The notes beneath the pieces are model-generated. The model was not told the origin of the DNA. It made no database searches and saw only the letters and a list, made by a program, of their open reading frames with translations. From IMG/VR virus record IMGVR_UViG_3300002641_000714: 64,000 nt of DNA; one strand, 5' to 3'. Made by a program: the position numbers and the translations under genes. Shown here piece after piece: positions 1 through 46,072 of this stretch. The stretch comes from a virus (taxonomy: Duplodnaviria > Heunggongvirae > Uroviricota > Caudoviricetes). Numbering within the stretch: the first letter of the stretch is position 1; each line of letters opens with the position of its first letter.

Positions 1-1914
1 TTTGGCAGTCATGGTTTAAAAGATGGTGAACCTGCAACATTTATGACTGTTAACGGTTTATCTGAAGAAGACGTTTTAGAAATTCTTCAAGAGTTCTTAG
101 ATAATTCTGATACATGTAATGATGCTGAAGCATATATTATAAATAGTGAAGATATATATCTTAATGATAAAGACGGAGAACCTATTGATTATCCACCATA
201 TGATGATATTGAATCTGAAAAAGATTTTCCAGAATATGAAGATATTGAAACTGATGACTTAGATCCTGAAGAAGATGTATTAAATGATGACTTTTTATTA
301 AATGAAGGAGAAGATATTCTTGAAGATGCTCAAGAAGAACTTAGAGGTTTATTATCTAATTTAGGAGAAAATGACAATATCACATTTGATAATGATGTTG
401 AATTAGAGGATTATACAGTTATTTCTATTGAAGCTAATGGTGATATGGAAACTGCAGACGGAGATATTATTAATGCTTTTGATTTAACAGATGCTGATGA
501 TATTTTTACATTATGTGATGTTGTTAAAGATGAATTAGATAATGAAGCTGCATATCCTGATTATGATGATGTTGATGACAAAGAAGATGAACTTCCGAGA
601 TTTGAAAAAATTCATAAAGGACGTCATCTTGATGAAAAGAAAAAGAATAATTGCTGTCCTGGGACAAAAACTGTTAATGAGTCAGCGATTGATACTGTTT
701 TAGCCGATCTTGATGCTAAAATATTAAATGAAGCTAAAGAAGAAGAAAAGAAAAATCAAAAAGAGCTTGAAAAGAAAACTCTTAAGGCATTAACAGAAAA
801 CAAACATTCATTACATGAAAATGTAAGATATAATGGCAAATTATTTGCTAAAATGACTCTTAAAGAATTAAAATCTATTTATGAAACTGTTAAAGCTTCT
901 ATAGATGCATTATCTGAAAGAGCGTTAAATGAAAGTGTAGTAGATACCAAAATGGTAGAAACTATAAACAAAAAGAAACAACTTCTTGAATTCTTAGATG
1001 AAGAAATCACATATAGAACTACCAGAATAGAATGTTTAAACAAACTTAATGAAGATGGCGCTGAGATTTCTGATGAAGAACTTGCTAATTTATTTGGTCC
1101 TGCTCAAGGAGAGGATGAAGCACCTGCAGATAATGGAGGTGATGACGCCAAGAGTGAGACTTCAAATGAAGAAGGAGAAGAGAATAAAGAAGGTAACGAA
1201 GATGAAAATAATGAAGAAAGTGAAGAGGTTGAATTATCTCGTATTGAAATAACATTAAAAGATGCAGAAGCAGCTAATGATTTGAAGCAAGCTTGTTTAG
1301 ATGCAGATATTCCAGAAGATGCATTTGAATTAGAAAATGTAGAGGATGATACATTTGAAGAAGGCGAAGAAAATTCTGAGAAAGAAAATTCTGAGGAAAG
1401 TTCTGAAAAATCAAGTGAAGAAACCACTGATGAAGAAAATTCAGAAGAAGGCACTAATGAATCTTATGAATTTGCCAAATATGTAAAAATGTTAGGTGAA
1501 GGTGAAGTTGCCGATGAACAACCTGCAGATGATGCAGCCGGTGAAGAAGGTGGTGAAGAAGAGAATGGTGCAGAGAATGCAGACGGTGAAGGTGACAAAG
1601 AAAACACTAAAGAAAACTCTGAAGAAGAGGAAGAAGATAAACAACCTAAATTCATTTTAACTAATACTGATTATGCTAGCAAATTGGCCAAAGTATTAGA
1701 AGATGTATATGGAATTTCTAAAGAAGAATTTGAAGATATGATTGGTGGAGAAATCGTCGAAGAAGAACCTAAAGAGGATGAAGAAAATTCAGATAAAGAA
1801 GGTTCTGAAAATTCAGAAGAATCTAAAGGTGAAGAATCTAAAGAGGATTCTGGAGAAAAGAAAGATGATGAAGAGGATGAACTCGATCCATCAGACTTAT
1901 TTAAGAATCTATAA
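1..1914 (+). CDS. Extremely acidic D/E-rich protein (5' partial; the frame is open from the window start)
   Basis: The frame is open from nt 1 (FGSHGLKDGEPATF precedes the first ATG at 43). Long runs of D/E (EEEE, DDD) and repeated SEE/EEN blocks; stop TAA at 1912-1914. The antisense Ser-rich ORFs within it are artefacts of the GAA/GAT repeats. Confidence 0.6.
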   Translation, partial: FGSHGLKDGEPATFMTVNGLSEEDVLEILQEFLDNSDTCNDAEAYIINSEDIYLNDKDGEPIDYPPYDDIESEKDFPEYEDIETDDLDPEEDVLNDDFLLNEGEDILEDAQEELRGLLSNLGENDNITFDNDVELEDYTVISIEANGDMETADGDIINAFDLTDADDIFTLCDVVKDELDNEAAYPDYDDVDDKEDELPRFEKIHKGRHLDEKKKNNCCPGTKTVNESAIDTVLADLDAKILNEAKEEEKKNQKELEKKTLKALTENKHSLHENVRYNGKLFAKMTLKELKSIYETVKASIDALSERALNESVVDTKMVETINKKKQLLEFLDEEITYRTTRIECLNKLNEDGAEISDEELANLFGPAQGEDEAPADNGGDDAKSETSNEEGEENKEGNEDENNEESEEVELSRIEITLKDAEAANDLKQACLDADIPEDAFELENVEDDTFEEGEENSEKENSEESSEKSSEETTDEENSEEGTNESYEFAKYVKMLGEGEVADEQPADDAAGEEGGEEENGAENADGEGDKENTKENSEEEEEDKQPKFILTNTDYASKLAKVLEDVYGISKEEFEDMIGGEIVEEEPKEDEENSDKEGSENSEESKGEESKEDSGEKKDDEEDELDPSDLFKNL

Positions 1915-1935
1915 TACATGAAAAACTAATAAGCG

Positions 1936-1968
1936 CACTGGATTTCAGTCCAGTGTTTGCTCGTTTTT
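1936..1968 (+). terminator. Rho-independent terminator after the acidic-protein gene
   Basis: 7-bp GC-containing stem cactgga (1936-1942) pairs with tccagtg (1949-1955) around a 6-nt loop, followed by the T-run tttgctcgttttt. Confidence 0.55.
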
Positions 1969-2105
1969 CAATTAGTTTTCATTTTTGTGGAGGAATGGCT
2001 TGTGAAAGTCGTTCCTTTTTATTATAAAACAATTAAATAAATTTATTTTATAATATATATAATTTTTGTAATAAATAAGAAGAAAAATGAAAACTAATTA
2101 AAATA

Positions 2106-2294
2106 ATGCAATTATCTGAAATATGTAATAATATTAAAGAACATATTATATCGTGGTATAATATGTTAATTGATTATTTTAAAAAGTTAACATCTAAAAA
2201 ATCAGAAATAAATAATCAAAATGTTGACCAAAATATTCATATTATTAAATATAAGGTAACACATGTTAAGATAAAGAAGAAAAATGAAAACTAA
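2106..2294 (+). CDS. Small hypothetical ORF (uncertain)
   Basis: 62-codon ORF ending TAA. Its start is preceded by the same 22-nt element (aagaagaaaaatgaaaactaat) that precedes the 2301 gene, so it may be a small leader gene or may be spurious. Confidence 0.25.
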   Translation: MQLSEICNNIKEHIISWYNMLIDYFKKLTSKKSEINNQNVDQNIHIIKYKVTHVKIKKKNEN

Positions 2295-2300
2295 TATATT

Positions 2301-3389
2301 ATGGCACAAATTAGATTTTTTCAACACTTAAATGAACAAGATGACAATTTTCAAAAAGTAACAACTTTGGATTATATTGATAATTCAGAAGGTTTTACTA
2401 TGTATTATTTTAAAGATGGCTCAAGATGTAATAAACAATATATTGCACCAGTAAATGCAAATTCGATTGAAGGTTATGAATTTGCTGAAGTTTCAAGTCA
2501 ATATAATATTTGGAAATTAAATTATGTAGTTCCTAAGATAGAAAAAACAAGAACTGCAACAAATGCACAAGGTGAAATAGTTGAAGCACCGACATGGGAA
2601 GAACTTACACAGAGTACCGCTGTCAGAAAACCACGAATTGATGTAATAGGAAAGCCATCAAAGATAGAAAATTATAAAGCTCCTGATGATAGTGAATATT
2701 TTTTTGATTATGATACATATACTGCACAAAAACAAAAAACAGCAGATGTAAAAGAATCTAAATCATTTGATTTTAATAATAATACTACTATAGAAGCACC
2801 TAAACCCGCATCTAAATTTGAAGTTGTAAAAGATACAGATGTAATTTCATATGCTTATAGTTTAGATAAAAATGGAGTATTGCATATTAATGCTGATGAA
2901 TTTTTAAGAAATATTAAATCAGTTCAAATAGAAATTGGCGGAACTGCATGTGAATTATCTACTGAAGATTTTATTGAAAATGCCATTACGCCAAAAGAAG
3001 AAAAAGTAGTTGAAAAAGTAGTTGAAAAAGAAGTATTGGTTAAAACTTCTGATACTGATATTGATCTCGGTGTAAATAATGATCAAAAATCTCTTATTGA
3101 TAATATGATCAATATGTCTAATAAATCAGAATATTCTATTGGCATTGAATTTACATTAAATCTTCCGCCATCTTCAATTTATAAACTAATTAAAACTGCA
3201 TATCCTGAAGAAATGTCTAAAGGTTTTATTAATATTTTAGCAAATAGAATGCAAGTTAAAGAACTTAAAACCTCTGTTGCTGACGGTTTATTAGCTTTTT
3301 ATGATGAAGATATTAATGAAAATCCTTCTATTCAAGAAGAGAATTCAAAAAATAGTGATAAAAAAACCGGGCGTCCAAAAAAAGCATAA
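2301..3389 (+). CDS. Hypothetical protein with a C-terminal basic AT-hook-like tail (KKTGRPKKA)
   Basis: Uninterrupted 362-aa ORF with non-repetitive composition, TAA stop, and no in-frame TAG. Confidence 0.6.
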   Translation: MAQIRFFQHLNEQDDNFQKVTTLDYIDNSEGFTMYYFKDGSRCNKQYIAPVNANSIEGYEFAEVSSQYNIWKLNYVVPKIEKTRTATNAQGEIVEAPTWEELTQSTAVRKPRIDVIGKPSKIENYKAPDDSEYFFDYDTYTAQKQKTADVKESKSFDFNNNTTIEAPKPASKFEVVKDTDVISYAYSLDKNGVLHINADEFLRNIKSVQIEIGGTACELSTEDFIENAITPKEEKVVEKVVEKEVLVKTSDTDIDLGVNNDQKSLIDNMINMSNKSEYSIGIEFTLNLPPSSIYKLIKTAYPEEMSKGFINILANRMQVKELKTSVADGLLAFYDEDINENPSIQEENSKNSDKKTGRPKKA

Positions 3390-3454
3390 CTTAATTAAAT
3401 CTTATAAATATTTAAAAATAATTTGTATCTATAATATTAATGGGAACAATATAT

Positions 3455-3910
3455 ATGACATCTGATAGTGAAACCAAATTGCGATCAATATATTCAAATT
3501 TAAAAAATTATTATATATTAGATGTATAGTCTTTTATAAAAAGTTTAAATTTAGATATGTCAAAAGCAAGTAGTATTTTTATTATCAATGATGAAATTTA
3601 GTCATTAATGACATAGCAATTAAATCTTAAAAAATATAAAGGTGTTATATATATTAATAAACATTTATCAAAAGATTTATTTAATTCTTTTAAATATCAA
3701 TTTAAAAAGGATGGTAATGATATTAGAATAGTACTTATTGATAATGGACAGTTTCCAAAACATTAGGATATAATGGATGTTTTTGATGAAGTTATTTTTT
3801 ATGACAGATTTAAGAAAAATAAAATTGTAGAATTTAATGGATTTGAAAAAAATTCTAATGATATTATTAATAGTATAGATATGGATGAAAATAATTTGTA
3901 TAATGAATAA
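3455..3910 (+). CDS. Hypothetical protein whose gene contains 5 in-frame TAG codons (read as Gln)
   Basis: ATG at 3455. A 152-codon frame with no TAA or TGA but 5 TAGs (3527, 3599, 3614, 3764 and one more). Translation is protein-like (MTSDSETKLRSIYSNLKNYYILDVQSF...). The TAA stop overlaps the next ATG (taATGg at 3908-3912). Missed by the standard-code ORF track. Confidence 0.55.
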
Positions 3911-5304
3911 TGGAAGATGATATATCAATTGGTAGTTTAGACACATTAAATAGTTTACAATCACTAGAAGAACAACAAGATATTTAGCCGGATTTATCAA
4001 AAGTTTAGGAATTACTTGCTAATATTAATACAAATGTTGAATAGGTTAAAGGTATTTCATTTAACCCAGATGGTTCATATGTTGTTAAACAAAGTAAAAC
4101 TCTTCGACAATTAATGGCGATGGTTCAGCAATGGTGGCATATGGTTTGTAATTTAAAAAATATTGATTTTTCTGATTTAAATAATTATGTTGAAGAACAG
4201 CCTGAAGAAAATGGAACAGTTTCTATTAATGCAATGGTTTATATGAATGCTGCTTTTGATATGTATGGTCGTGCATATAGACAAGGTATGGTATGCCCAA
4301 TATGCGGAAAGAAAGCAAGATATTTACCGCCGGGTGGATATTGCTCTACAAAATGTTTACTTCAGGCTGCCAAAAATAAATCACTTGCATTTTTAATGGC
4401 ACCTAATGAAAAATATAAAAGTTTATAGCAAACAGTTAATCAATTATACGGCATTTTAAAACATACGAATTTAATTATTAATGCATTAGTAATGATTCCA
4501 GATATTATTAGAGAATTGGGGTCATTTCCAATTGAATATCGAAATTTTGTTCAATGCAAAATTGCTGAAGGTTTTACAGATTTACAATGTTTAATATAGG
4601 AAGCAATGGTTTATAAAACACAATTATTGCAAAAAATGTTAAAACCCGTTATGACTGGTGTTATTGCAAAACCTGTAGCAACAGGAATGCAAACAATTAA
4701 TTTAATTGTACAATCATTACAAATTGCATAGGAGGCTTTTTAGATTGCATATGACACTATTAAAATTATTATAGATAGATTATCTATTCCAGAAATAGCA
4801 CCGGGATTGGTTATTCCCGCATAGTCACATGCATGGGCATTAACACCTAGATCATTTATTTGCCCTACATTTCCGCCAACGGGAACACCTGATTTAGGTA
4901 AAATATTTGTTATTTTACCAGGCGCAATGAAAAGTCCGCTATACCCTTCATCATTACAAAGTATTAATACATAGTCAATTGATGAAATTGTATAGAAATT
5001 ATTTCCACCATTAACACCAGCTGATTATTATTTAGAACCTGAATTATTCCAAATACGATATTTATTTAGTGATCAAAGCGATTTGGTATCATCTGTAATA
5101 TAGCAATTAGAAGATTTATTAAGATTTGGCCCAGATTATATTCCGGCTTTTGAAAATTTATTACCTGTTAAAGCATATACTGTTAATGGTGATAATGTAT
5201 ATCTTCCAAATGTCGCTTATATATGGTTTGTTTTAGGCCTACTTGATTCGTGGGCACCACATAGTATGGCATTAGTTGGAAATATATTTAATCCAACTGC
5301 ATAA
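3910..5304 (+). CDS. Hypothetical protein (464 aa) with a CxxC...C zinc-ribbon-like segment and 13 in-frame TAG codons
   Basis: I translated it by hand from ATG 3910 to TAA 5302-5304 in one frame. The track's ORF 4114..4428 is an internal fragment bounded by TAGs. There is a TGA stop immediately upstream (3904-3906). Contains GMVCPICGKKARYLPPGGYCSTKC. Confidence 0.6.
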
Positions 5305-5306
5305 AT

Positions 5307-5337
5307 AAAAAGCTAGTAATATTTTTACTAGCTTTTT
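5307..5337. terminator. Bidirectional terminator hairpin between convergent genes
   Basis: Perfect 13-bp stem aaaaagctagtaa / ttactagcttttt around the loop tattt. It lies between the plus gene ending at 5304 and the minus gene ending at 5361. Confidence 0.6.
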
Positions 5338-5360
5338 ATAACTTATTGTAAATCAATTAG

Positions 5361-5690
5361 TTAATAACCAAGTTCAGCGCCAAGTGCCCCCATCACCAAT
5401 GAAGAAGTTAATAATTTTCCAAGAGTTCCATTTTGATCAATACCAAGTATTTTACAAATAGCTCTCATAATTGCTGGGCCTATAGTAGAACCGGCGACAC
5501 CACCAAGTAAAGCAGTAAATAAACCTTCATCCATTATGTCATCAAGTGATTTTCCTTCTTCTTGTGCAATTGCTGCTGATTCAACAATATAATTAAATAA
5601 TTTTTTTGCATTTTGCACTTCTTTAACAGAAACACTTTTTAAATCAACTCCTTCGAATAACTCATTAGTTGCATGTGAATGCTATATCAT
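5361..5690 (-). CDS. Small glycine-zipper membrane protein (1 in-frame TAG)
   Basis: The track ORF 5361..5618 starts at a GTG. The frame stays open upstream through one TAG to an ATG at 5688-5690. C-terminal GLFTALLGGVAGSTIGPAIM...MGALGAELGY is glycine-zipper-like. Confidence 0.45.
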
Positions 5691-5720
5691 AATAAAATAT
5701 ATTATTTTTATTATTTATTT

Positions 5721-5885
5721 TCAAAACAAACCCTTCTTAGATTTAGTTTTTGTTCCAATAATTGTGATTTTCTTTGTTGGTTCTTTTTGTTCTGCCTTTA
5801 TAATTAATGATGGTGCAGATTTTAATTCTAGATTTTTATGTCCGCATCCAGGGCAGAATGTTGCTATTTTCGGAGATAATTTCAT
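5721..5885 (-). CDS. Small zinc-ribbon protein (54 aa)
   Basis: ATG at 5883-5885 and TGA at 5721-5723. Contains CPGCGH. It falls below the track's length cutoff. Confidence 0.4.
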   Translation of the reverse strand: MKLSPKIATFCPGCGHKNLELKSAPSLIIKAEQKEPTKKITIIGTKTKSKKGLF

Positions 5886-6284
5886 TTATTTTTTTATTTG
5901 GTTTATATTATCTAAAGTAAATTTCTTTAGTTTGAATTCATTTGCACCTTTAACAGATGCATTGAATATATAACTATTATTATCAAATTTATGAACTACA
6001 CAGCCTTCATATATTTGTCCGTCTTTTAGTGATTCCCATAAATAAACCGGACGAAGTTGTTCAGCATCAATACCTAAATCCAAATCAAGATTTTTTGTAT
6101 TTATAGTTCTTCTAATTTGATAATATGTTTTTTCTGCTTCTTTTTGAATTTTTTCTTCTTCTTGCTCTTCAGCTTCATCTGCGATATCTTGTTCTTCTTG
6201 TGCTTCTTCTTCTAAATCTTGAATATACATTTCTCGCTCAATATCTCTATTATCGATATCGTATGTTATATCATCTACTACCAT
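5886..6284 (-). CDS. Hypothetical acidic protein
   Basis: 132-aa ORF with a TAA stop and an acidic EEEAQEEQD stretch. Confidence 0.55.
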   Translation of the reverse strand: MVVDDITYDIDNRDIEREMYIQDLEEEAQEEQDIADEAEEQEEEKIQKEAEKTYYQIRRTINTKNLDLDLGIDAEQLRPVYLWESLKDGQIYEGCVVHKFDNNSYIFNASVKGANEFKLKKFTLDNINQIKK

Positions 6285-6335
6285 TTCTTTCTTATTATAA
6301 TTTTTTTTACTATTTATTAAAAATATTTTTAAAAA

Positions 6336-7109
6336 TTATTCACTGAATTTTTCATGCCAATATTCATGACTTGACTTGTAAAATTCATACATATTTTGTG
6401 TATTATAATCAATATTGTCATTTTGTTTATCACGAATATCAGATGGGTTAACATCTTTGTCTTCTTGAATAACTAAAGGAATTGTGCATATATATGTATT
6501 TAGTTCTGGTTTGTCAATCGGTGCACAATATAAAGGTCCATCAGCAACCCAGAAAAATTTGTCAATAAACTCAAGATAATATTCCATACCTTTACGAGAA
6601 AGTGCATACATGGAGGCATTCCATATTGGAACATGTGGATGTTTTACCCAATATTCATCTTTATGATTTAAAACCTCCTCTACTATTCGTTCATCTACAG
6701 TAAAACCACCAAATTGAAGAATATCAAAATCACTAGGAATATTATCTAAATATTTTTCCCACAGTTTTTTATCTTCAATAAAAAGAATATCATCTTCCAT
6801 TATTAAACAATATTGATAGCCTTGATCATATGCTTGCTTTATCATAGAATAATGATTATGTGTACAATCATATTCATTAGGCTTTGTTAATCGCCCTAAT
6901 TTATTTTGATTGAGAACGTGCATCATTACAGTATTATATTTCTTAAATGGAACAGTTGTTCTAATATCAAGATCAGATTGTCTAAAATTATTAGGCAATC
7001 CGAAATCAAATAATTGTTGAATCATTTTATATCGTCTATCTCCTCGAGTTGAAAGATTCAACATAAAAATATGTTTGAATTTCTTTTTAAGTTTTTCAAA
7101 TATTTTCAT
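6336..7109 (-). CDS. Glycosyltransferase family 25-like protein
   Basis: The N-terminal HIFMLNLSTRGDRRYKMIQQL resembles the GT25 (LPS glycosyltransferase) signature VINLxRSxDRR. Has a DD motif (IMEDDILF). TAA stop. Confidence 0.5.
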   Translation of the reverse strand: MKIFEKLKKKFKHIFMLNLSTRGDRRYKMIQQLFDFGLPNNFRQSDLDIRTTVPFKKYNTVMMHVLNQNKLGRLTKPNEYDCTHNHYSMIKQAYDQGYQYCLIMEDDILFIEDKKLWEKYLDNIPSDFDILQFGGFTVDERIVEEVLNHKDEYWVKHPHVPIWNASMYALSRKGMEYYLEFIDKFFWVADGPLYCAPIDKPELNTYICTIPLVIQEDKDVNPSDIRDKQNDNIDYNTQNMYEFYKSSHEYWHEKFSE

Positions 7110-7260
7110 TTTATAAACAAATTAAAAATTTTTAATTATATGGTTTTAATATAAAAAGTTTCTTAAATTCAAATAAATCATTTTTAAGAGACTTTTTTAT
7201 TGTTTTAATGATTTATATATTTTATATATTTTAACTCACCAGAAGTCAAATAAATAAGCT

Positions 7261-8337
7261 CTAATCAAATAATTCATTATTTAATGCTTCTGCACATTCT
7301 TGTATAATTTTTAAACCATATTTTCCAAGTTCGGTTACTATCTCATATGCTTCCTGAATTTGTTCTTTTCTAGGATTATATGCTCTGTATCCCATTGACA
7401 TAATTTTTTCTTCATTCGTCATATCATCAGATATTTTGGTATCCATAATAAGTTTCATATGATCCAAACCATACTTATTAACTAATGCATTCCATTGGGA
7501 TTCTGTAAATACACGAGTGCTGCTATTGTATAATGGGTGGTTTGTATAATATTGAATACCATAAGGAACTTTTGTTGTATTTTTACCATTAGTAACAATA
7601 AAGCATATACACAAATTATACCAATCGATTGACACATCTTTAATAGTCCATTTTGCATATACATCGGTATAATTAATCTTTTCGCCGGTATTCATATCAT
7701 TTATAAATGTAGGGTAATAAAACTTATTTCGCTCGGTAAATAAACAACGGCATTTATTAGTGGCAAATACTAATTTAGAGCCTCTAAGAGATACACAATA
7801 TTCAAGATGTTTCTCCACAATAAACGGAAAATCCATAAACATATCAAAACAAATTTCGCTATCACCATATGCATGATATATGAATTTCAATTTATCACCG
7901 GTATTAAGATCTACCAAATGAAATACCCATGTATATTTATAACTTTTAGGATGATATGACATTACTTTCATTACATAAAAACGGTGTGCTTCTATGTGGC
8001 GTTTATGTGTCCCTAACAATTTGCTATCTCTATAATCAGAATAATCAGATTTATAATTATAATATGAATTATATTCAGACGTTTCATTATCATTAAAGGA
8101 ATAGTCTTTAAACCAATGATATAATTCACAACTTAAATCACCAGATTCATAACGGGAACGAGTAATAGGTAAAAGATATAATATCTCACCTTCGTATGCT
8201 TTAGCATTTTCAAATTGGTAATTGCATGTTTCATCAAAATCTGCATTAGCAAATACTGCAATTGAACTAATAATAATTGATAAGATAATAACTAACCGTT
8301 TCATTATGATTCCTCCTATTTTTAATTTAATATGCAA
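7261..8337 (-). CDS. Secreted hypothetical protein with a signal peptide
   Basis: Internal MKRLVIILSIIISSIAVFA looks like a signal peptide, so the true start is likely near 8304. The stop is TAG (7261-7263). If TAG is read through, there are 5 extra codons to a TGA at 7246. Confidence 0.55.
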   Translation of the reverse strand: MHIKLKIGGIIMKRLVIILSIIISSIAVFANADFDETCNYQFENAKAYEGEILYLLPITRSRYESGDLSCELYHWFKDYSFNDNETSEYNSYYNYKSDYSDYRDSKLLGTHKRHIEAHRFYVMKVMSYHPKSYKYTWVFHLVDLNTGDKLKFIYHAYGDSEICFDMFMDFPFIVEKHLEYCVSLRGSKLVFATNKCRCLFTERNKFYYPTFINDMNTGEKINYTDVYAKWTIKDVSIDWYNLCICFIVTNGKNTTKVPYGIQYYTNHPLYNSSTRVFTESQWNALVNKYGLDHMKLIMDTKISDDMTNEEKIMSMGYRAYNPRKEQIQEAYEIVTELGKYGLKIIQECAEALNNELFD

Positions 8338-8372
8338 AATTAATACTTTTTATTTAAAAGAAAAAATAGAAG
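8320..8372 (-). promoter_or_regulatory. Conserved early/middle promoter-like motif (partial instance)
   Basis: Contains ...gcaaaattaatactttttatttaaaag-aaaaaatagaagc, a member of the ~55-nt family described in the findings. It sits immediately upstream of the 7261..8337 gene. Confidence 0.4.
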
Positions 8373-8418
8373 CTAATTTTTTATTAACTTCTATTATTTT
8401 CTAATATTTGATATCTAA

Positions 8419-9636
8419 TTATTGTACTTTTTCAAGTTCATAGCTGAAAAAAGCTTTATACTTAAAAACCCCATATACAACTTTATAAAGTTTTCTGGTT
8501 TTTCCATCATTAGATCTAGTGTCCAAAATCTCTGCAACACATCCTTTAATACCCATTGATTTAATATATACTAAATCACCTATTTTGAATTTAGCTTTAC
8601 CTGAACGCGGTTCACTTGGAACTTTATCTTCTTTACGGAACTCACAGAATTGAATTGGATTTGTTTTCTTTGGTTTTTCTTTTGCTACTTCAATAGGCTT
8701 CTCATCAAAAATCTGATTACCAAGAATATCCATTACTGAATTAAATTTCAATCGTCCTTCAGCTTCCTCATTCAAAATCTCATAAATATCACAAAATTGT
8801 TCAAATGTAATATCAAATGATTTATTTGTATCAAGTGTCAATTTAATAATATTTACAGTATATCGAGATTTTCCATTTCTTTTACGGTGTTTCAAAAGAA
8901 CCGCATATTCATCTGTAAGTTGTTTATATAATGCAAAATCCTTTTCATTTTTTACATATTCGGGTTTTTGTTTAGGAATATTAACATTATCTAATTCTTT
9001 AATAAGCCGTTCAAATCCAGATTTTGTACAATCTTTTAATTTATTAACTGTGCTTTTAACTGTTTCTTTTGAATCATCTACAGTATTTTTAAAAGCATCA
9101 ATTAATTGGCTGATATCTTTATCAAAATATTTGCGTTCTTTGCAGGTATTAAATTTATCTTGCAACCATTTAAAATCGAAATTACGATTAAATTTAGTAT
9201 CTGGAAAATACTCACTAATGTACTCACTAACAGTTTCAGCATATTTATCTATGCTATCGATAAATGCCATTTCTTTTCCAGCAAGAATAGCCATATTATA
9301 ATCAGAATAAATGAATAAATCATGTTTACCTTCATATAGTAATATTCCATTAATATTATTTTTATACACTTTAATATATGTATGTTCTAAACGTTCACAT
9401 TTACTATTCATCATATCCAATGATATATAAACCTTTACAGGTGTATTTGGATGAGATTTACTAGCAGCATAACCAACCAGCATTTTAACTTTGGTGTCAT
9501 GAATAAACATATCATACTGAAGCTTTTTATAGTCTTCTTTATTTAATGTATTTCCATGATAAAAACCTTTATTTTCATCATATACAACAACATAATCCGG
9601 TTGCATTAACATTTTCTCTAAATATTTGTTACTCAT
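8419..9636 (-). CDS. Hypothetical protein
   Basis: 405-aa uninterrupted ORF with a TAA stop. Confidence 0.6.
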   Translation of the reverse strand: MSNKYLEKMLMQPDYVVVYDENKGFYHGNTLNKEDYKKLQYDMFIHDTKVKMLVGYAASKSHPNTPVKVYISLDMMNSKCERLEHTYIKVYKNNINGILLYEGKHDLFIYSDYNMAILAGKEMAFIDSIDKYAETVSEYISEYFPDTKFNRNFDFKWLQDKFNTCKERKYFDKDISQLIDAFKNTVDDSKETVKSTVNKLKDCTKSGFERLIKELDNVNIPKQKPEYVKNEKDFALYKQLTDEYAVLLKHRKRNGKSRYTVNIIKLTLDTNKSFDITFEQFCDIYEILNEEAEGRLKFNSVMDILGNQIFDEKPIEVAKEKPKKTNPIQFCEFRKEDKVPSEPRSGKAKFKIGDLVYIKSMGIKGCVAEILDTRSNDGKTRKLYKVVYGVFKYKAFFSYELEKVQ

Positions 9637-9932: not shown

Positions 9933-9994
9933 TATTTTAATTTAACAATACAAAATTAATACCTTATAATTAAACTAAAAAATAGAAGCTTTAA

Positions 9995-10696: not shown

Positions 10697-10701
10697 AACT
10701 A

Positions 10702-11262
10702 CTAATTAAACTCTTTTATTATTTCTTCTCGGCTTTTAAACTCATCTGTATTTTCTTTATTAACATAAATTATATGTTTATTTCTTAATAAAGAATGATC
10801 ATATGCAGTTTTGAATAATTCTAATTCTTTTTTAATTAAATCAATATCTGCATTTGATAAAGATTTATTATCATCATTTTTTCTAAGTAATTCCGGTGAT
10901 GTTGATAATAATTGAATATATAAAATATCATCTTGCGGAATTTTCTCTAAAATATGTTTTTCAATAAGCTTTATTGTTTCAAGAATTTGTTCAGGATTTT
11001 CATCTCTATAAAGTTGTCCATAAACATATTCTCCAATATAATACCGATTATATATCAATATATTATTATCATTGTTTATATAATCTTTTATTGCAATATC
11101 AGCTAATGATTTATAATTAATAAATTGGTGATATAATACATTTTGTTTAACTTTTGGTTTACTACAATGAATAACCTTTACAATTTCGTTATTTTCTAAA
11201 ATATTATTAATAAGTGTATTCTTACCGGTATTATCCGGTCCATCAATAATAATTACCTTCAT
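10702..11262 (-). CDS. dNMP kinase (T4 gp1-like)
   Basis: The P-loop IIIDGPDNTGKNTL has the unusual GxxxxGK(D/N)T form of T4 gp1 (GVKRSGKDT). Adjacent to the hydroxymethylase. Ends TAG TAG, then 2 codons and a TAA overlapping the next ATG. Confidence 0.6.
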   Translation of the reverse strand: MKVIIIDGPDNTGKNTLINNILENNEIVKVIHCSKPKVKQNVLYHQFINYKSLADIAIKDYINNDNNILIYNRYYIGEYVYGQLYRDENPEQILETIKLIEKHILEKIPQDDILYIQLLSTSPELLRKNDDNKSLSNADIDLIKKELELFKTAYDHSLLRNKHIIYVNKENTDEFKSREEIIKEFN

Positions 11263-11695: not shown

Positions 11696-11847
11696 ATATC
11701 TTTTAAATTATTTTTTATTATTTAATTATTATAAATCTTTATAAAATAATGTTTCAAATTTTACAGTAAAAATGAGTAAAATTTTTCATTTTGCCCATTT
11801 TCTTTTTAATTAAAAATAAATATATTACAAAATAATACATAGTAAAA

Positions 11848-15506: not shown

Positions 15507-15560
15507 TTTTTTAATTACGATGCAAAGATAATACTTTTTTCTTAAATTAAAAAATAGAAG
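15507..15560 (-). promoter_or_regulatory. Conserved early/middle promoter-like motif
   Basis: ttttaattacgatgcaaagataatacttttttcttaaattaaaaaatagaag. On the coding strand this reads CTTCTATTTTTTAATTTAAGAAAAAAGTATTATCTTTGCATCGTAATTAAAA, ending about 25 nt before the ATG. Confidence 0.55.
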
Positions 15561-15760: not shown

Positions 15761-15811
15761 TTTTAATTACGATGCAAAATTAATACTTTTTTCTTAAATT
15801 AAAAAATAGAA
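15761..15811 (-). promoter_or_regulatory. Conserved early/middle promoter-like motif
   Basis: ttttaattacgatgcaaaattaatacttttttcttaaattaaaaaatagaa. Confidence 0.55.
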
Positions 15812-21886: not shown

Positions 21887-21938
21887 TTTTAATTTCGATG
21901 CAAATTTAATACATTTTTCTTAAATTAAAAAATAGAAG
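21887..21938 (-). promoter_or_regulatory. Conserved early/middle promoter-like motif
   Basis: ttttaatttcgatgcaaatttaatacatttttcttaaattaaaaaatagaag. Confidence 0.55.
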
Positions 21939-21939
21939 C

Positions 21940-23046
21940 TTAATTAGTTTCCATTAAATATGCTTTAATAAATTCATCAATATTTCCATTCATAACAGAA
22001 TCTACATCAGAAGTTTGATAATTTGTTCGATGATCTTTTACACGTTTATCATCAAAAACATAACTTCTAATTTGTGCGCCCCAGCCAATTGGCATCTTTT
22101 TATTTTCTATTTCTGCTTGAACTTGACGACGTTTTTCAAGCTCTAATTCATATAATTGGCTGCGCAAATGTTGCATTGCAATTTCTCTGTTTTTCGGTTG
22201 GTCTCTTGATTCTGTACTTTCTGCTACCAATTCATCTTCCTGTCCGGTTAACGGATTAATAAACTTATAATGAAGTCTTACCCCAGATTCAACTTTATTT
22301 ACATTCTGCCCGCCTGCGCCAGAAGATCTAAATGTATCCATTGTAATATTTGCAGGATTAATATTAACTTCAATAGAGTCATCTACTAATGGACATACAA
22401 ATACACTTGCAAAACTTGTCATACGTTTTCCTTGTGCATTATATGGACTTACCCGCACTAATCTGTGTATACCTGTTTCTCCTTTAAGATGGCCATATGC
22501 AAAATCTCCATATACATTAAATGAAACAGTTTTAATTCCTGCAGTATCGCCTTTTTGATAGTTTGTTATTTCTCCTGTAAAATTGTGATTTGCAAAATAA
22601 GATAGATACATTCGCATTAACATTTCGGCCCAATCTTGTGCTTCAGTTCCACCTGCTCCAGCCACAATTTTTAAAACTGCAGGCATTTTATCCTCATCAT
22701 TATTTAGCATTGTTTGCATTTCATATTTAGAAATCGTTTCTAAACATGTATTATATAATGATTTGGACTCCTCTTGAGACAATTCTTCATCAGATAACAA
22801 TTCTAAATAAGTAATGTTATCATCAGTTAAATTAATATCATATAGCAAGTTAGATAAATTTTTCCAATCTTTCGAAATTTTTTCTGCCATTTTTGCATCA
22901 TTCCAAAAAGCTGGATCATGCATTCGCATATTCAACTCATTTTCTTGATTCTTTTTATCTTCAAAATGGATACAATTTTTTAAATATTCAAATCGCTTTC
23001 GAAGTTCTTTAACATTAATATTTGAATTTAACATTTTCATTCCCAT
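21940..23046 (-). CDS. prfB: Class-I peptide chain release factor, RF2-like
   Basis: Has the GGQ motif (SSGAGGQNVNKVESGVRL). The tripeptide anticodon region reads RLVRVSPYNAQGKRMTSF (SPF-like SPY, not the PxT of RF1). Continuous ORF with no +1 frameshift site. Confidence 0.8.
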   Translation of the reverse strand: MGMKMLNSNINVKELRKRFEYLKNCIHFEDKKNQENELNMRMHDPAFWNDAKMAEKISKDWKNLSNLLYDINLTDDNITYLELLSDEELSQEESKSLYNTCLETISKYEMQTMLNNDEDKMPAVLKIVAGAGGTEAQDWAEMLMRMYLSYFANHNFTGEITNYQKGDTAGIKTVSFNVYGDFAYGHLKGETGIHRLVRVSPYNAQGKRMTSFASVFVCPLVDDSIEVNINPANITMDTFRSSGAGGQNVNKVESGVRLHYKFINPLTGQEDELVAESTESRDQPKNREIAMQHLRSQLYELELEKRRQVQAEIENKKMPIGWGAQIRSYVFDDKRVKDHRTNYQTSDVDSVMNGNIDEFIKAYLMETN

Positions 23047-26417: not shown

Positions 26418-26468
26418 AATTTTTATGTTGCAAAAATAATACTTTTTATTTAAATTAAAAAATAGAAG
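26418..26468 (-). promoter_or_regulatory. Conserved early/middle promoter-like motif (variant)
   Basis: ttttatgttgcaaaaataatactttttatttaaattaaaaaatagaag. Confidence 0.5.
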
Positions 26469-29022: not shown

Positions 29023-30480
29023 TTAAAATTTATAATGTTCATCAATATACTTATATAATGCATCTGGTGTATTCTCAACAATATTATCAAGAACTGCATC
29101 TTTAATAAGTTGTTTAATTTCACCGACTTGCCGACTTGGTGTCAAATGATAACGAATCATAATATCATCTCCAGATACACATGGTTGGAACAATCGCACA
29201 TAATCTTTTTGCTTAAGATCTTCAATACGTTGTTTCAATTCATCATATTGTTTCCAGAAATTTTTCTTCTTCTCTTCATGTTTCGTTGTAATATCGGCTT
29301 TTGCCAAAATTAACAACTCATCAATATAACCATTTGCATCATGAACAAGACGACGTACAGCAGCATCAGTTACACCCTCATCACAAATTGCTTGAGGCCT
29401 CATATGCATACGAACCATAGTCTCTACAAAGTCCATATTTTCATCCAGAGGCATCTTCATGCGGCTGAATATAGATTTTATCATCTTAGCTCCTACATAT
29501 TCGTGGTTGTCAAAAGACCAGCCTTTATGAGCATTCCAAGATCTGGTTTTCATTTTACCAATATCATGAAATAATGCGGCAATACGAAGCCATACATTAT
29601 CAGACTGTTTAGTAACATTGTCAAGTACATGCAAAGTATGCCAGAAAATATTTTTGTGGCCACGTACATACTCAGATACAGTTGAAGCTCTGGTAGTATC
29701 CATTTCTACCAATTCTGGTAAAAACTTTTTAAGTAAACCAAAATTTTTCAGAATTTCAATTCCGTCTTTTGCATGATTAGATGCCATGATTTTCATAAAC
29801 TCTGTAGTAATTCGCTCAGCAGAAATAATATCAAGACGATCTACATTTCGTATAATTCCATCTTGAGTTTTCTGATCAATTCCGAAATCAAGCTTGCACA
29901 TAAAACGAACAGCCCGAAGCATACGTAGTGGGTCATCACTGAATGTAGTATCAGGATCTACAGGAGTCCGAATAATTTTATTCTTCAGATCTTCAATTCC
30001 GTTAAACGGATCAACCAACTCACCAAAATGTTCAGCATTAAGTTGAATAGCCATAGCATTAATTGTAAAATCACGGCGAAGCTGATCATCTTCAAGAGTT
30101 CCATCCTCTACAATAGGTTTACGAGAACCACGTTCATATGATTCTTTACGAGCACCGACAAATTCTACTTCCCAATTTCCAAAATGAACCTGGGCTGTAC
30201 CAAAGTTTTCAAATATTGATAATTTAATATTGTCAAAATTTGATTCCCTTTTCAAATATTCTGTAAAAGCCTCTGCAATTTTCTGTCCCTTTCCGACTAC
30301 CACAACGTCAATATCATCATTGGGCCTGCCAAGAATTAAATCACGAACATAACCGCCGACAACATAACATGGATATTGTAAAGTGTCAGCAACCTTCTGA
30401 ATATTGCAAAGAACTCCAAAAATATCTGGAGTTTTTTGAATTTCTTTTAGAATTGTATTTTTATCAAATTGTGTTAACAT
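29023..30480 (-). CDS. cca: CCA-adding tRNA nucleotidyltransferase with an HD domain
   Basis: GGYVRDLILGRPNDDIDVVV and RRDFTINAMA (class-II nucleotidyltransferase head) plus HD-domain motifs HTLHVLD and HDIGK. Confidence 0.8.
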   Translation of the reverse strand: MLTQFDKNTILKEIQKTPDIFGVLCNIQKVADTLQYPCYVVGGYVRDLILGRPNDDIDVVVVGKGQKIAEAFTEYLKRESNFDNIKLSIFENFGTAQVHFGNWEVEFVGARKESYERGSRKPIVEDGTLEDDQLRRDFTINAMAIQLNAEHFGELVDPFNGIEDLKNKIIRTPVDPDTTFSDDPLRMLRAVRFMCKLDFGIDQKTQDGIIRNVDRLDIISAERITTEFMKIMASNHAKDGIEILKNFGLLKKFLPELVEMDTTRASTVSEYVRGHKNIFWHTLHVLDNVTKQSDNVWLRIAALFHDIGKMKTRSWNAHKGWSFDNHEYVGAKMIKSIFSRMKMPLDENMDFVETMVRMHMRPQAICDEGVTDAAVRRLVHDANGYIDELLILAKADITTKHEEKKKNFWKQYDELKQRIEDLKQKDYVRLFQPCVSGDDIMIRYHLTPSRQVGEIKQLIKDAVLDNIVENTPDALYKYIDEHYKF

Positions 30481-30776: not shown

Positions 30777-30829
30777 TTTTTAAATTCGATGCAAAATTAA
30801 TACTTTTTTCTTAAATTAAAAAATAGAAG
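30777..30829 (-). promoter_or_regulatory. Conserved early/middle promoter-like motif
   Basis: ttttaaattcgatgcaaaattaatacttttttcttaaattaaaaaatagaag. Confidence 0.55.
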
Positions 30830-31453: not shown

Positions 31454-31505
31454 TTTTAATTACGATGCAAAATTAATACTTTTTATTTAAATTAAAAAAT
31501 AGAAG
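31454..31505 (-). promoter_or_regulatory. Conserved early/middle promoter-like motif
   Basis: ttttaattacgatgcaaaattaatactttttatttaaattaaaaaatagaag. Confidence 0.55.
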
Positions 31506-33905: not shown

Positions 33906-34316
33906 TTAATTATCTGTAATATCTTTAGTTTCTCCACATTCATTACATTTAATATTTACACAATGTCCTAATCCTCCCGGAGTAATTTCATATGTAAATT
34001 GTTGTTTCATTGTAGATAAGAATGTTTTACTTTGTTCTGAGTCTTCAATATGGGAATGCGTATTTTTAAATTCCATTGCTGCTTTAGTTTCATTATCTGT
34101 TAATTCAAAAACAATATTTGTTTTCCCATTTTGATAACATGGTTCCAAATCAATATTTTTTCCAGTATTTGGATGTCCGCATATTGGACATTTCCATACA
34201 TATTCGTCATTTGCAACTTTTGGCATTCCAAATTGTAAAGCAGACTCATGCATATCATCAATACTTGCAACAAAATCTCTATTACAATATTCACAATGAC
34301 ATTTATAATATGTCAT
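33906..34316 (-). CDS. Hypothetical zinc-ribbon protein
   Basis: CHCEYCN...CPICGH...CNECG Cys pairs. TAA stop. Confidence 0.5.
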   Translation of the reverse strand: MTYYKCHCEYCNRDFVASIDDMHESALQFGMPKVANDEYVWKCPICGHPNTGKNIDLEPCYQNGKTNIVFELTDNETKAAMEFKNTHSHIEDSEQSKTFLSTMKQQFTYEITPGGLGHCVNIKCNECGETKDITDN

Positions 34317-34383
34317 ATAATATTCCTTTTCTGCCTAATCTAGTGTTCTAATCATATATTTTTATTTTAATTTTTATTTATTT

Positions 34384-36495: not shown

Positions 36496-36548
36496 TTTTT
36501 AATTACGATGCAAAATTAATAAAATTATTTCAAACTAAAAAATAGAAG
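36496..36548 (-). promoter_or_regulatory. Conserved early/middle promoter-like motif
   Basis: ttttaattacgatgcaaaattaataaaattatttcaaactaaaaaatagaag. Confidence 0.5.
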
Positions 36549-36632: not shown

Positions 36633-38552
36633 TTAAAGTCCTACGCAGTTTACATAGAATGTAATATATTGTGTTTCAGGATAGAAACCTGCATCTACAA
36701 GAGCGTAACGAGATTTAATCATAAGTTTTGGAGCCATTGTACCTTCAGCGATAATACGTACAACTTCAGCCATTACATATGGGCAGAAGTGAACACCTGG
36801 TTCATCTTTACCACCTTTACGACCAACTAATACACGAGTATCATTAGCTTTCATCAATGGATCAACGTAAACAGTTAAACCGCAAACAGTACCGATTGGG
36901 TAAAGTTGACCAGCAGTTTGTTTAACAGTATTCTCAATTGGTGAGAAGCTATAGTGTGCATCAGATTGTAACAATGTAGCAACACGGATATTAGTTACAA
37001 CGAATGTAGCAGCACCGTAACGACCACGTTGTTGGATCCAGTTAGAAGCAGCTAAGATGTTTGTGAAGATTCTCTTGATAAGAGTGTCACGGTTCTCGAA
37101 GTTAGCACCTTCAATAACACCCATTGGAAGTACTGGTATGCTAACCATTCTTTGAGAAGCATAACGTTGTTCTTGTTCAAGATATTCACCTTCTGGAATT
37201 GCATATGTAGCCCAGTCAAGATTACTAGGATTTTCTGCATCGAATTTTCTGAAGTTTAAGTTTAAGCATGCGCCAAGACCTTCAACTTCTACCATACGAG
37301 CGTGGTTTTTCCAACCAAGAGCAAACAAACGAGATGTGATGTGACGGTTGATAGTTTGAGAAAGTTCGTTTACACCAGCATTCTCAACAATCTTTAATAC
37401 ATCAATACCCCATTGTTTTTGGAGGTCAGTAACTTGTTCTTGAGTTACAGCACAAGCAACTTGGATAGTACCAACTTGGATGTTCTTTGTGAAGAGTTGT
37501 AATGAGATTTGACGAGCAGGAGTCATTTCACCTGTTGCACGGCTCATTGGTTCAAAAAGAACAGTACCATCTTGATATGTACCAGCCCATGCATCTTCAT
37601 CATGGTCACCAGCACCAGCAAAACCAAGAAGTTGATCCTCTAACATAGAGATTAATTTAGCACCTCTAACTGTAAGAGTAATTGCAGGAGTTTCACTTAC
37701 AAGTTCAACATCCTTTAAGAATGTTTCACCAAGAGATTGGTCGCCATCAACAACTTTGAACATTGGATCACCATCAATACGGCTCCAACCAATAAATTCA
37801 ACTGTAAGATGTTTATCAGCATCCTCAAATCTTACACCAGCTTTTAAACCAGCTTGTTCAAGCTCATATTTGTATTTAACAACTGGATCTGAACCTTGTG
37901 GAACAAGAACAGCTTTAAATGCATGTGGAAGTCCATAAAGACGGAAAGCAGCTGCGCCATTAATTGGTTTTTCTTCATTTGGCCAATTCTCTGGGAATGC
38001 TTTTGTAGAAGAATCAACAGCCATACGACGTTTGTTATAAACATGTGGATTAGCGCTGAATCTATCATATGCAGGAGTTGCACCATATGGTTGTTTGCTA
38101 CCGCTATATACATAGTCCATATAAGGAAGAACACCACTAGGACCTGCAAGAGGAGTAGTATTTACAAGTTCAAAACCAATAGTTTTAGCAGCAACCTTCA
38201 TTGCTAATGGAAGAAGTGCAGGGAATTTGTCACCTGAACCAAGAATTTTATCATCAGCCTATTGTGCGCCGGTCATTGCAGCCATTTTAGGAGCAACTAC
38301 ATTACCAACACCAAGAGTATTGTAAAGGTTGTTATATGGAGCATATGCACCACCGAACTCTGAGAATGCGTTAGCACCCATTTCAGGAGCAGATTCATTT
38401 AAGGATTTAGCTGTGTTGTGAGCAAGTTGACTCATCCAAGCAAGCTTTTCTGGATCCTTAACACCAGTTGTACGAGTAATCATTGGAGCCCAAGCTTCAT
38501 TGATCATTTGCTCTGCATTTTTAGCAGTAGCTTTTTGATTGTTTACTTTCAT
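36633..38552 (-). CDS. Putative major capsid protein (639 aa, 1 in-frame TAG)
   Basis: The track ORFs 38259..38552 and 36633..38201 share one frame ((38552-36633+1)/3=640) and are joined through the TAG at 38259-38261. The region is visibly more GC-rich with biased codons (ggt, gca, aac, ttc, atc), as expected for a highly expressed structural gene. The Gly/Ala-rich N-terminus is typical of processed capsid proteins. The late-type motif is upstream. The functional call is tentative. Confidence 0.5.
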
Positions 38553-40483: not shown

Positions 40484-40501
40484 TAAAAAAAACTCTAAAA
40501 T

Positions 40502-41341: not shown

Positions 41342-41354
41342 ATTAATTATTTAA

Positions 41355-45110: not shown

Positions 45111-45293
45111 TTATATGTTTTTATTATTTTTTGTTTTAATTAAATATTCAATGAACTTCCAAAAATGTTGTTCAAGTAAAACTTCATTATATGTTTCGTC
45201 TATTTTTTCTAAACTAGATTTTGGAACTCCAGAAATCTCATATATTTTTTGTTTAAAATAATCTAAATCAATTGTTTCCATTATATTTCTCAA
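45111..45293 (-). CDS. Small hypothetical ORF (TTG start; uncertain)
   Basis: 60-aa ORF with a TAA stop. It overlaps a possible read-through extension of the HNH gene. Confidence 0.3.
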   Translation of the reverse strand: MRNIMETIDLDYFKQKIYEISGVPKSSLEKIDETYNEVLLEQHFWKFIEYLIKTKNNKNI

Positions 45294-45366
45294 AATAAAA
45301 TTTTATTTCTTGCGGATGTTCTTCTACTAAACCATACTTAATCATCATTCGATATGTAAAATTTCG

Positions 45367-45579
45367 CTAGCAACATATCAATCCATGTTGTAATTCTTCT
45401 CTAAATCCTTCTATATCATTGGAGCCTTTTCTAAAATTACATGCTCTGCATGATGGATTTAGATTTTCTATAGAATCATCACCTGTATAATCTTTTGGTA
45501 ATAATTTTTCTTTATCTTTTTCAGACCAATTATGAAATACAGGTTTAATGTGATCTACCTGCATATCTTTATAATCCAA
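45367..45579 (-). CDS. HNH homing endonuclease
   Basis: VDHIKP...ENLNPSCRACNFRKG is an HNH motif. It lies immediately upstream of the truncated polB. The stop is TAG. If read through, the frame stays open for about 33 more codons to a TGA at about 45268. Confidence 0.7.
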   Translation of the reverse strand: MDYKDMQVDHIKPVFHNWSEKDKEKLLPKDYTGDDSIENLNPSCRACNFRKGSNDIEGFREELQHGLICC

Positions 45580-45604
45580 TTCGCATCCGCAATATGCGCA
45601 GTGT

Positions 45605-46072
45605 TTATTGTATTTGTTCCAAATTTGTTCCCTCTATATTTTGTTTAGTTTCATTATTATCTTCTGCTAATTTTTTAAGTGCAAATAGAACAATAGATTC
45701 CATTGAATCATTATATGTTTGACATGAACATTTATATATTTCATTTTCACTTACCCACCATATTCCATGCCAAAGTGGGAAAAAATATTCAGTAGTTTCT
45801 ATTTCTTTTCTTTCAATAAATCTATGAGGTTCAACCCATATTTTCAGATTTTTTATTTCTCTCAACCAATCACATATTTGTGATAAAGTTGGTGCAGACA
45901 TTACTGCATTATAGATTGCATTTTCACATTCTTCATTCCAGTCTCTATATTCGCCTTCTTCATATAATTCATATTCTGCATTTGATGTTTTTGCTAAATA
46001 GAAACTATTGGTTTTTTCGTGAAAACCAACTTTTTGCAATAATTTAGCTATTTCAATTGATACTTTTTTCAT
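45605..46072 (-). CDS. Hypothetical protein
   Basis: 155-aa ORF with a TAA stop. Confidence 0.5.
   Translation of the reverse strand: MKKVSIEIAKLLQKVGFHEKTNSFYLAKTSNAEYELYEEGEYRDWNEECENAIYNAVMSAPTLSQICDWLREIKNLKIWVEPHRFIERKEIETTEYFFPLWHGIWWVSENEIYKCSCQTYNDSMESIVLFALKKLAEDNNETKQNIEGTNLEQIQ

Follow-up and report, generated by a model that had tools for sequence, protein, structure and literature searches.

Stop-codon recoding was reportedly the subject of an earlier study by Ivanova et al. in 2014. The closest described systems to the DNA considered here are the Lak megaphages, which read TAG as glutamine (Gln), encode a tRNA(CUA) together with RF2, and leave large regions of their genomes without TAG while using the codon where structural proteins are encoded (PMC6784885, PMC8346664). 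A model in which TAG is a stop early in infection and a sense codon late has already been published for Lak and other recoded phages (Devoto 2019, PMC6784885; Borges 2021/22). Borges et al. (bioRxiv 10.1101/2021.08.26.457843) describe most replication genes of Lak as using the alternative code; Lak gene families were not tested there for preferential recoding, and promoters are not mentioned. The descriptions of Lak and of recoding consulted here do not mention promoters, and a literature search pairing 'late promoter' with alternative-code phages returned no paper holding that term. Here we analyse a stretch of 64,000 nucleotides (nt) from the IMG/VR virus record IMGVR_UViG_3300002641_000714 (the window), with a focus on two adjacent plus-strand genes near its start, at 3440..3910 and 3910..5304, that are rich in in-frame TAG. 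We consider it probable that the window belongs to a Lak-like phage which uses genetic code 15 in part of its genes, that the switch between codes is linked to promoter class, and that the gene pair is a late operon in which TAG is neutral.

Based on sequence comparison, the window is a fragment of a divergent Lak-like Prevotella megaphage, a gut phage, and represents a distinct lineage. Its gp23-like major capsid protein (MCP) is 61% identical to that of Lak-A/B/C, and the 15 best matches to it in the phage collection all come from Prevotella Lak genomes (61-62% identity). The large protein of the pair shares only 27% identity with its orthologue in Lak-A/B/C, and a nucleotide search of positions 3000-9000 against the phage collection gave zero matches. 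The content of guanine plus cytosine (GC) is 23-34%, GC skew flips sign between gene blocks, and about 77 genes are obtained when only TAA and TGA count as stops. Recognisable among these are genes for the MCP, the tail sheath, gp32-, gp46- and gp47-like proteins, a primase, a family-B polymerase fragment, thymidylate synthase, NAPRTase, a CCA-adding enzyme and a release factor; no tRNA gene was found in the 64-kb window.

The pair and its flanking signals are as follows.
3403..3410, plus strand: TATAAATA octamer, candidate late promoter of the pair, ending 29 nt from ATG 3440
3440..3910, plus strand: small conserved protein, 156 amino acids (aa) from ATG 3440 or 151 aa from ATG 3455
3527, 3599, 3614 and 3764, plus strand: the four in-frame TAGs of 3440..3910
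3910..5304, plus strand: gene for a 464-aa protein, its start overlapping the upstream stop (TAATG)
3985, 4006, 4042, 4426, 4597, 4729, 4741, 4822, 4972, 4993 and 5101, plus strand: the eleven in-frame TAGs of 3910..5304
5305..5339, no strand assigned: terminator-like hairpin with a 15-bp stem, common to the convergent genes

A preliminary description of this DNA, made from its letters, had placed the genes at 3455..3910 and 3910..5304 with 5 and 13 TAGs; both open reading frames (ORFs) are real, and the actual counts are 4 and 11. Both are free of in-frame TAA and TGA, of which the other two frames hold 8-29 and 19-43 (19 and 43 in the large gene 3910..5304). We found 46 homologues of the 464-aa protein that align end to end, the closest at 97% identity and the remainder at 44-63%, with about 100 invariant residues and synteny kept. 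Orthologues of the small gene in five related genomes (L001, L003-L006) contain 4-7 TAGs each. That TAG stands for Gln is confirmed, without circularity, by the DNA of four relatives (L001, L003-L005), where the codons opposite TAG are CAA or CAG in 47 of 116 cases, against a Gln background of 5.8%, with GAA (Glu) second. The conserved genes of the window that are broken in frame, namely those for the MCP, the sheath, a DUF285 protein, phoH, the HNH protein and the pair, are broken by TAG and never by TAA or TGA.

It might be argued that the interrupted ORFs are pseudogenes in decay, or short and independent genes in the standard code, given that both are fragmented under the standard code and that Pfam and PHROG scans of the two pair proteins gave no match to any family. 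The probability of this is practically negligible when set against 464 + 156 codons free of TAA and TGA at 25-30% GC, full-length homologues at 44-97% identity that share those invariant residues, the exchange of TAG with CAA/CAG at identical alignment columns and the conserved synteny. The two genes form a translationally coupled late operon, with the conserved TATAAATA upstream, the TAATG overlap and the hairpin terminator at the end, and the small gene is a conserved, translationally coupled partner of the 464-aa protein. The octamer is kept at the same site in four close relatives (57-61% aa identity) while its flanks and the spacer diverge, and upstream of the pair orthologue in the genome Lak-A1 it is replaced by AATAAATA. 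The stretch between the pair and the TAG-free genes upstream of it showed no terminator.

In-frame TAG is limited to a subset of the genes, as previously claimed: 58 genes are free of it, against 18 genes assigned to the late class that together hold 47 TAGs. The 46 minus-strand genes of the 5.7-36.5 kb block hold no internal TAG and 289 CAA/CAG codons. Another 12 genes, including polB, the gp46/47-like genes, primase, gp32 and three plus-strand genes upstream of the pair, hold none and 159 CAA/CAG, which brings the TAG-free sets to 12,826 codons with 448 CAA/CAG. The 18 late-class genes contain 47 TAGs and 205 CAA/CAG. The count of TAG against promoter class with an enrichment test, which had been proposed for this genome, gives 0, 0 and 47 TAGs with a Fisher p of 2e-17, the late-class assignment having been made partly with knowledge of the genes' TAG content. 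The related claim that minus-strand early and middle genes are uninterrupted stands for the 46 genes of the block but not for two genes, 33906-34355 (TAG at codon 7) and 5361-5690 (TAG at codon 3), that lie within it.

Outside the reading frame, TAG occurs at the same rate in every class (18-22 per 1000 in frame +1), and there is therefore no general depletion of TAG. This frame specificity contradicts the idea that the pattern is a by-product of strand or regional mutation bias, or of the avoidance of CTAG restriction sites, and unrelated to translation. Most TAG-free genes do lie on the minus strand and many TAG-bearing ones on the plus strand, with the sign change in GC skew falling between the blocks. 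We nevertheless regard such an origin as very improbable, since TAG-free 43-3389 sits directly upstream of the pair on the same strand and since minus-strand late genes (57210-60028, sheath, MCP and HNH) contain TAG. The contrast on the same strand is kept in four relatives (L001, L003-L005), whose pair holds 4-7 and 15-18 TAGs and whose directly upstream genes have no internal TAG (0-1 in L005) or use it as stop only.

The two groups of genes are preceded by different motifs. The primary sigma factor of Bacteroidota recognises promoters with a -33 TTTG and a -7 TAnnTTTG element, and the T4 late promoter has TATAAATA at -10, read by gp55 and gp33 with the sliding clamp. Candidates resembling both types occur in the window.
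8333..8346, minus strand: first of nine host-type cores GTATTAATTTTGCA, containing TAATTTTG and matching the Bacteroidota -7 TAnnTTTG
9949-9962, 15521-15534, 15773-15786 and 21899-21912, minus strand: host-type cores two to five
26429-26442, 30790-30803, 31466-31479 and 36509-36522, minus strand: host-type cores six to nine, all nine being intergenic
11814..11826, 39646-39658, 48580-48592, 49217-49229 and 51920-51932, plus strand: late-type motif AAATAAATATATT, followed by (G/A)
55872-55884 (minus strand, sheath), 59984-59996 (minus strand) and 62461-62473 (plus strand, phoH): late-type motif AAATAAATATATT

A search with the 14-nt core GTATTAATTTTGCA, allowing up to 2 mismatches, returned 21 matches against 4.35 expected, nine of them in a longer conserved context; the 42-nt long consensus of the early promoter, with up to 3 mismatches, was too strict and found nothing. 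All genes downstream of the nine cores lack internal TAG. For the late-type motif we obtained 26 matches against 13.9 expected, in agreement with the earlier statement that the genes behind it carry TAG: the copies listed precede TAG-bearing genes, with 51957-52403 as the one exception. In 5-6 genomes, the octamer is kept in one of its forms (TATAAATA or AATAAATA) ahead of both the pair and the 109-aa gene that follows it.

A possible third ('middle') motif, CATATAATTATTAA, occurs on the minus strand at 7129-7142, 45104-45117, 48544-48557, 57177-57190 and 61221-61234. These sites precede the TAG-free genes for a glycosyltransferase, polB, the gp46-like protein, primase and gp32, and the motif is weakly enriched (19 matches against 11.6 expected).

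The association was also evaluated across a whole genome, that of Lak-A1 (MK250015.1; 541,664 bp), in which 551 code-15 genes were called, 202 of them with internal TAG. In an unbiased screen of 8-mers in the 80-nt upstream regions, the top 8-mer of TAG-bearing genes was AATAAATA (49/105 vs 8/144, p = 1.6e-14) and that of TAG-free genes was TGTATCTTTGTA, of the TAnnTTTG type (38/144 vs 1/105). With motifs fixed beforehand, TAG occurs in 9 of the 67 genes behind TAnnTTTG and in 63 of the 81 behind AATAAATA (p = 1e-15). Of 98 occurrences of AATAAATA, 63 have their 3' end 20-29 nt away from the ATG, a spacing typical of a positioned promoter element. The -7 element of the TAnnTTTG type is TATCTTTG in Lak-A1, and the host-type core there is GTATCTTTGTA, in contrast to GTATTAATTTTGCA in the window, which has only 2 matches in Lak-A1. 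Ten TAG-bearing window genes have orthologues in Lak-A1, all of which carry TAG as well.

Two genes of the window would belong to the proposed switch machinery.
21940..23046, minus strand: phage RF2, which reads TAA and TGA and not TAG; Pfam PCRF and RF-1 domains; TAG-free
29023..30480, minus strand: CCA-adding tRNA nucleotidyltransferase (tRNA maturation); TAG-free

The release factor is better matched by RF2 than by RF1 in PDB (E = 2.6e-82 vs 7e-42). Its GGQ is intact, and the stop-codon-recognition tripeptide reads SPY (22441-22449, minus strand) in place of the bacterial SPF. The gene stands in a co-directional run downstream of the host-type promoter at 26429-26442. In the proposed sequence of events, genes behind host-type promoters, to which RF2 and the CCA-adding enzyme would belong, are translated by the unmodified host and would need to be free of internal TAG, a few keeping TAG as their stop. 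Once tRNA(CUA) has been made and termination at TAG has weakened, genes behind (A/T)ATAAATA would be translated through their TAGs. The suppressor tRNA would be encoded outside the window, as the Lak genomes suggest; Lak-A1 has tRNA-CUA twice. The same model of TAG as an early stop and a late sense codon, put forward in the preliminary description, is supported by the promoter classes, by the TAG-free RF2 gene and by the repeat in Lak-A1; this support is indirect, and the model was in print before.

The tRNA genes of Lak-A1 also gave two observations in their own right. At 225329-226308, a 256-codon gene lies between the two tRNA(CUA) genes; with 11 TAGs and 6 CAA/CAG it is among the densest of that genome. 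At 290204-290276, ARAGORN calls a tRNA with the anticodon UUA; a Lak tRNA with this anticodon was reported by Crisci et al. (PMC8346664).

Several points speak against a switch linked to promoter class, in addition to the partly TAG-informed assignment of late genes. The -33 TTTG was not seen about 20 nt upstream of the host-type cores, where the conserved stretch is CTTCTATTTTTTAATTTAA; the cores are therefore termed 'host-type-like' and not proven host promoters, and 'early' and 'late' are used here as labels for promoter resemblance alone. Three genes behind the late motif (38823-39551, 49791-50696 and 51957-52403) have no TAG, and neither the window nor the ±10 kb loci of relatives (L001-L003) contain a suppressor tRNA. 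Of 15 TAG-free window genes with orthologues in Lak-A1, eight have TAG-bearing ones there, replication genes among them; the gp46/SbcC-like gene, for example, has 19 TAGs in Lak-A1 (92681-94357) and none in the window (46854-48524) at 52% identity. This is in line with what Borges et al. state on Lak replication genes. The partition is therefore lineage-specific and not fixed by function.

TAG also serves as a terminator in some early genes, and it was on four such stops that part of the earlier argument rested.
10699..10704, minus strand: TAG TAG stop of an early kinase-like gene, conserved in L001
7261-7263 and 28743-28745, minus strand: other TAG stops of early genes
45268..45654, minus strand: HNH homing endonuclease gene beside the polB fragment 43537-45084, its stop being the TGA at 45268

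Three of the four, those at 7261, 10702 (TAG TAG) and 28743, are upheld, each with a TAA or TGA 4-5 codons later; the fourth, which was taken to end the HNH gene at 45367, is refuted. Beyond that TAG the next TAA or TGA follows only 33 codons on, and the match to the PHROG HNH profile spans it, so that both TAGs of the gene, those at 45634-45636 and 45367-45369, are sense codons. The in-frame TAA or TGA shortly behind the TAG stops had been read as fitting the switch. We rejected this 'back-up stop' pattern as not above chance: among the TAA/TGA-terminated genes of the window, 54% have a second in-frame TAA or TGA within 5 codons (median 5), a background level for an AT-rich genome. A second gene of the homing endonuclease kind, GIY-YIG-like and running off the window end (63434-64000, plus strand), has one in-frame TAG at 63677.

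We also asked whether the pair stands apart in how much TAG it holds. Two structural genes and the adjoining small gene carry one TAG each.
36633..38552, minus strand: gp23-like MCP, 1 TAG in 639 codons
52523..55837, minus strand: tail sheath, 1 TAG in 1104 codons
5361..5690, minus strand: 109-aa protein with a hydrophobic, Gly-rich C-terminal half, TAG at codon 3 (5682-5684)

The density in the pair was earlier described as far above the rate elsewhere, and within the window it is indeed the highest (24-26 TAGs per 1000 codons vs 0-15). It is not so by comparison with Lak-A1, where the 90th percentile of TAG-bearing genes is 27 per 1000 codons, the densest gene reaches 48, and the orthologue of the large gene ranks 93rd of 464. 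As a share of Gln codons, TAG makes up 37% in the pair, 15% in other late-class genes (p = 0.003) and 3% in capsid plus sheath. We derived a neutral expectation from the T:C ratio at the synonymous first position of Leu codons and the G:A ratio at the third position of Lys and Glu codons; on this measure, for which the codon ratios of the three amino acids are a crude proxy, a selectively neutral TAG would reach a TAG/CAA of about 1 or more. The observed TAG/CAA is 0.68 in the pair, 0.28 in other late-class genes, 0.04 in capsid plus sheath and 0.01 in early or unclassified genes. At the 13 columns with Gln in all five orthologues, TAG accounts for 46-62% of the codons in every genome, and no conservation of TAG at particular positions was found over these columns and genomes, the distribution being random (variance test p = 0.58).

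The simplest reading is that the TAG content of the pair reflects an absence of selection against TAG and not enrichment. Such selection appears to be graded, being absolute in early genes, strong in the abundant capsid and sheath, and about zero in the pair. High TAG density alone is poor evidence of special regulation, as a neutral TAG would be about as common as CAA at 26-28% GC, and the pair is an ordinary late operon of a recoded phage, not a special case. Because of its TAGs, expression of the pair would still depend on the code switch, with a yield of roughly the read-through efficiency raised to the number of TAGs. Eleven TAGs would give about r^11, implying either that little of the product is made or that late suppression is very efficient, and this fall in yield need not mean that more TAGs were selected for.

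That interpretation has to be weighed against an adaptive one, in which selection keeps the number of TAGs high as a tuned timer. Output would then follow about r^11 of suppressor activity, and premature expression of a dangerous cell-wall-active complex would be delayed or prevented, a view that Borges et al. hold for lysis genes. The high TAG load of the pair is indeed kept in five close genomes and in Lak-A1, TAG fills about half of the conserved Gln sites in every lineage (46-62%), and the 464-aa family is linked to M15 and CHAP hydrolases. The missing terminator upstream of the pair would permit transcriptional read-through, and heavy recoding is published to converge on lysis genes of crAss-like and Agate phages. 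The adjoining 109-aa gene keeps its codon-3 TAG in all five close genomes, together with an upstream AATAAATA (about 5712-5719) that sits 22-23 nt from the ATG in each; its Lak-A1 orthologue has 1 TAG and AATAAATA upstream.

We nonetheless judge a tuned timer to be rather unlikely. The density is not above the composition-based neutral expectation, TAG positions are not conserved, a single TAG suffices to block translation, many Lak-A1 genes at unrelated locations have 27-48 TAGs per 1000 codons, and the window protein keeps its load despite the loss of the hydrolase domain. The claim that an exceptional density acts as an especially tight gate is not supported, in view of the neutral ratio, the random positions, the denser Lak-A1 genes and the block already imposed by one TAG. 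Equally doubtful is the extended form, in which the number but not the positions of TAGs is selected in the pair and in the 109-aa gene and, combined with the late promoter, yields a two-layer ultrasensitive timer. If it were true, cell-wall-active virion or lysis proteins would be released only at near-complete suppressor activity. The pairing of host-type promoters with the standard code and of late promoters with code 15 would, if true, be a general and previously undescribed organising principle of Lak genomes.

The function of the pair was approached through relatives of the 464-aa protein. The protein has a CPxCG...C..C zinc-ribbon-like motif and long predicted helices (the latter at low confidence). 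Most homologues are about 700 aa long, their conserved module being preceded by a Peptidase_M15_3 domain at the N-terminus and a linker of low complexity; by domain scan, the M15 domain is absent from 3910-5304 and from the whole window. A profile search of 1.84 billion representatives identified only 102 relatives of the family, and among ten longer distant relatives that were scanned, three have an N-terminal CHAP domain and one has M15. Since two unrelated peptidoglycan-hydrolase domains are found on one module, the module is therefore taken as the non-catalytic part of a cell-wall-degrading protein. The 464-aa protein represents a form, lacking the hydrolase, of a megaphage family of cell-wall-hydrolase scaffolds, and its most likely role is that of a low-abundance virion- or lysis-associated cell-wall protein. 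Its size, helices and zinc-ribbon-like motif would be more in keeping with a lysin of the virion (ejection or tail) than with a soluble endolysin.

Against this role it must be said that it was derived from domain fusions alone and that the window copy is without a hydrolase domain. The AlphaFold model of the 464-aa protein, built on a 36-sequence alignment, is poor (mean predicted local distance difference test score 62, predicted template modelling score 0.34) and was not used for functional claims, and a Foldseek search of this model against viral structures gave no match below E = 0.05. The PDB profile search gave only a weak match, to an M15 carboxypeptidase, which stems from the N-terminal domain of the relatives.

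The neighbouring 109-aa protein is a candidate small membrane protein adjoining the predicted hydrolase-scaffold operon, with a borderline Kyte-Doolittle signal (1.54); Pfam and PHROG scans of it gave no match. On the other side of the pair, 43-1914 (plus strand) encodes a 623-aa, extremely acidic (Asp/Glu-rich) protein with no family match. This gene is TAG-free in four of five close genomes (one TAG in L005) and has 3 TAGs in its Lak-A1 orthologue. Also upstream of the pair, AAGAAGAAAAATGAAAACTAAT recurs directly before ATG 2106 and ATG 2301 (about 2075-2100 and 2270-2295, plus strand).

Elsewhere in the window, two paralogous families have the conserved N-terminal leaders MKNYKQILEAxNRGIKFALDDF and KKALYESIMTSVAKxVKKxLNE. 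Their members lie at 39662-43501 (plus strand) and 57210-60028 (minus strand), and also at 11848, 48620, 49251, 49791 and 51957 (plus strand). The leader peptides of both families may serve in targeting or processing. For GIKFA, the coding DNA (GGTATTAAATTTGCA) is similar to the host-type promoter core and turned up in the search for that motif.

What is new here is the lineage, the correspondence between promoter class and codon class, and the placement of a TAG-rich gene in a putative hydrolase-scaffold family. The link between promoter and codon class is a modest addition to the published model. Two motifs predict TAG use gene by gene, in the window and across Lak-A1, and the code-switch model thereby becomes testable on metatranscriptomes (transcription starts and timing) and metaproteomes without a cultured host.

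The late motifs of the window have a counterpart in T4. The octamer is the same as there, TATAAATA, or takes the form AATAAATA, and stands at a constant short spacing before late-type genes; the phage has gp23-, gp32- and gp46/47-like genes as T4 does. The candidate elements differ in that their distance of 20-29 nt to the ATG implies very short leaders. Phage T7 offers a parallel for the predicted scaffold: its gp16 carries an N-terminal lytic domain on a large internal (ejection) protein and acts as a virion-associated peptidoglycan hydrolase. The likeness to gp16-type hydrolases and to modular endolysins lies in the N-terminal fusion of M15 or CHAP to a large conserved helical module. It does not extend to sequence or fold, for which no similarity to any solved or annotated protein was detected, and the window copy is non-catalytic.

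The window resembles the Lak megaphages (PMC6784885; PMC8346664) in a GC content of about 26-28%, a large T4-like replication set, TAG read as Gln, an encoded RF2 and TAG that is unused in large regions but used at structural genes. Unlike Lak-A1, where several replication genes carry TAG, and the Lak genomes of Borges et al., where most of them are recoded, its lineage keeps recombination and replication genes in the standard code. In agreement with the model of Borges et al., the early genes, among them that of the code-change factor RF2, can be read in the standard code, and recoding is seen in genes for structural and cell-wall-related proteins and, within early regions, in those for homing endonucleases. 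The TAG-bearing HNH and GIY-YIG-like genes of the window find a parallel in an intron endonuclease of Agate phages that these authors describe as recoded. The window departs from that model in the heavy recoding of its cell-wall-associated pair, which is at neutral expectation and not demonstrably enriched, and in its use of TAG, which is tied to two promoter classes.

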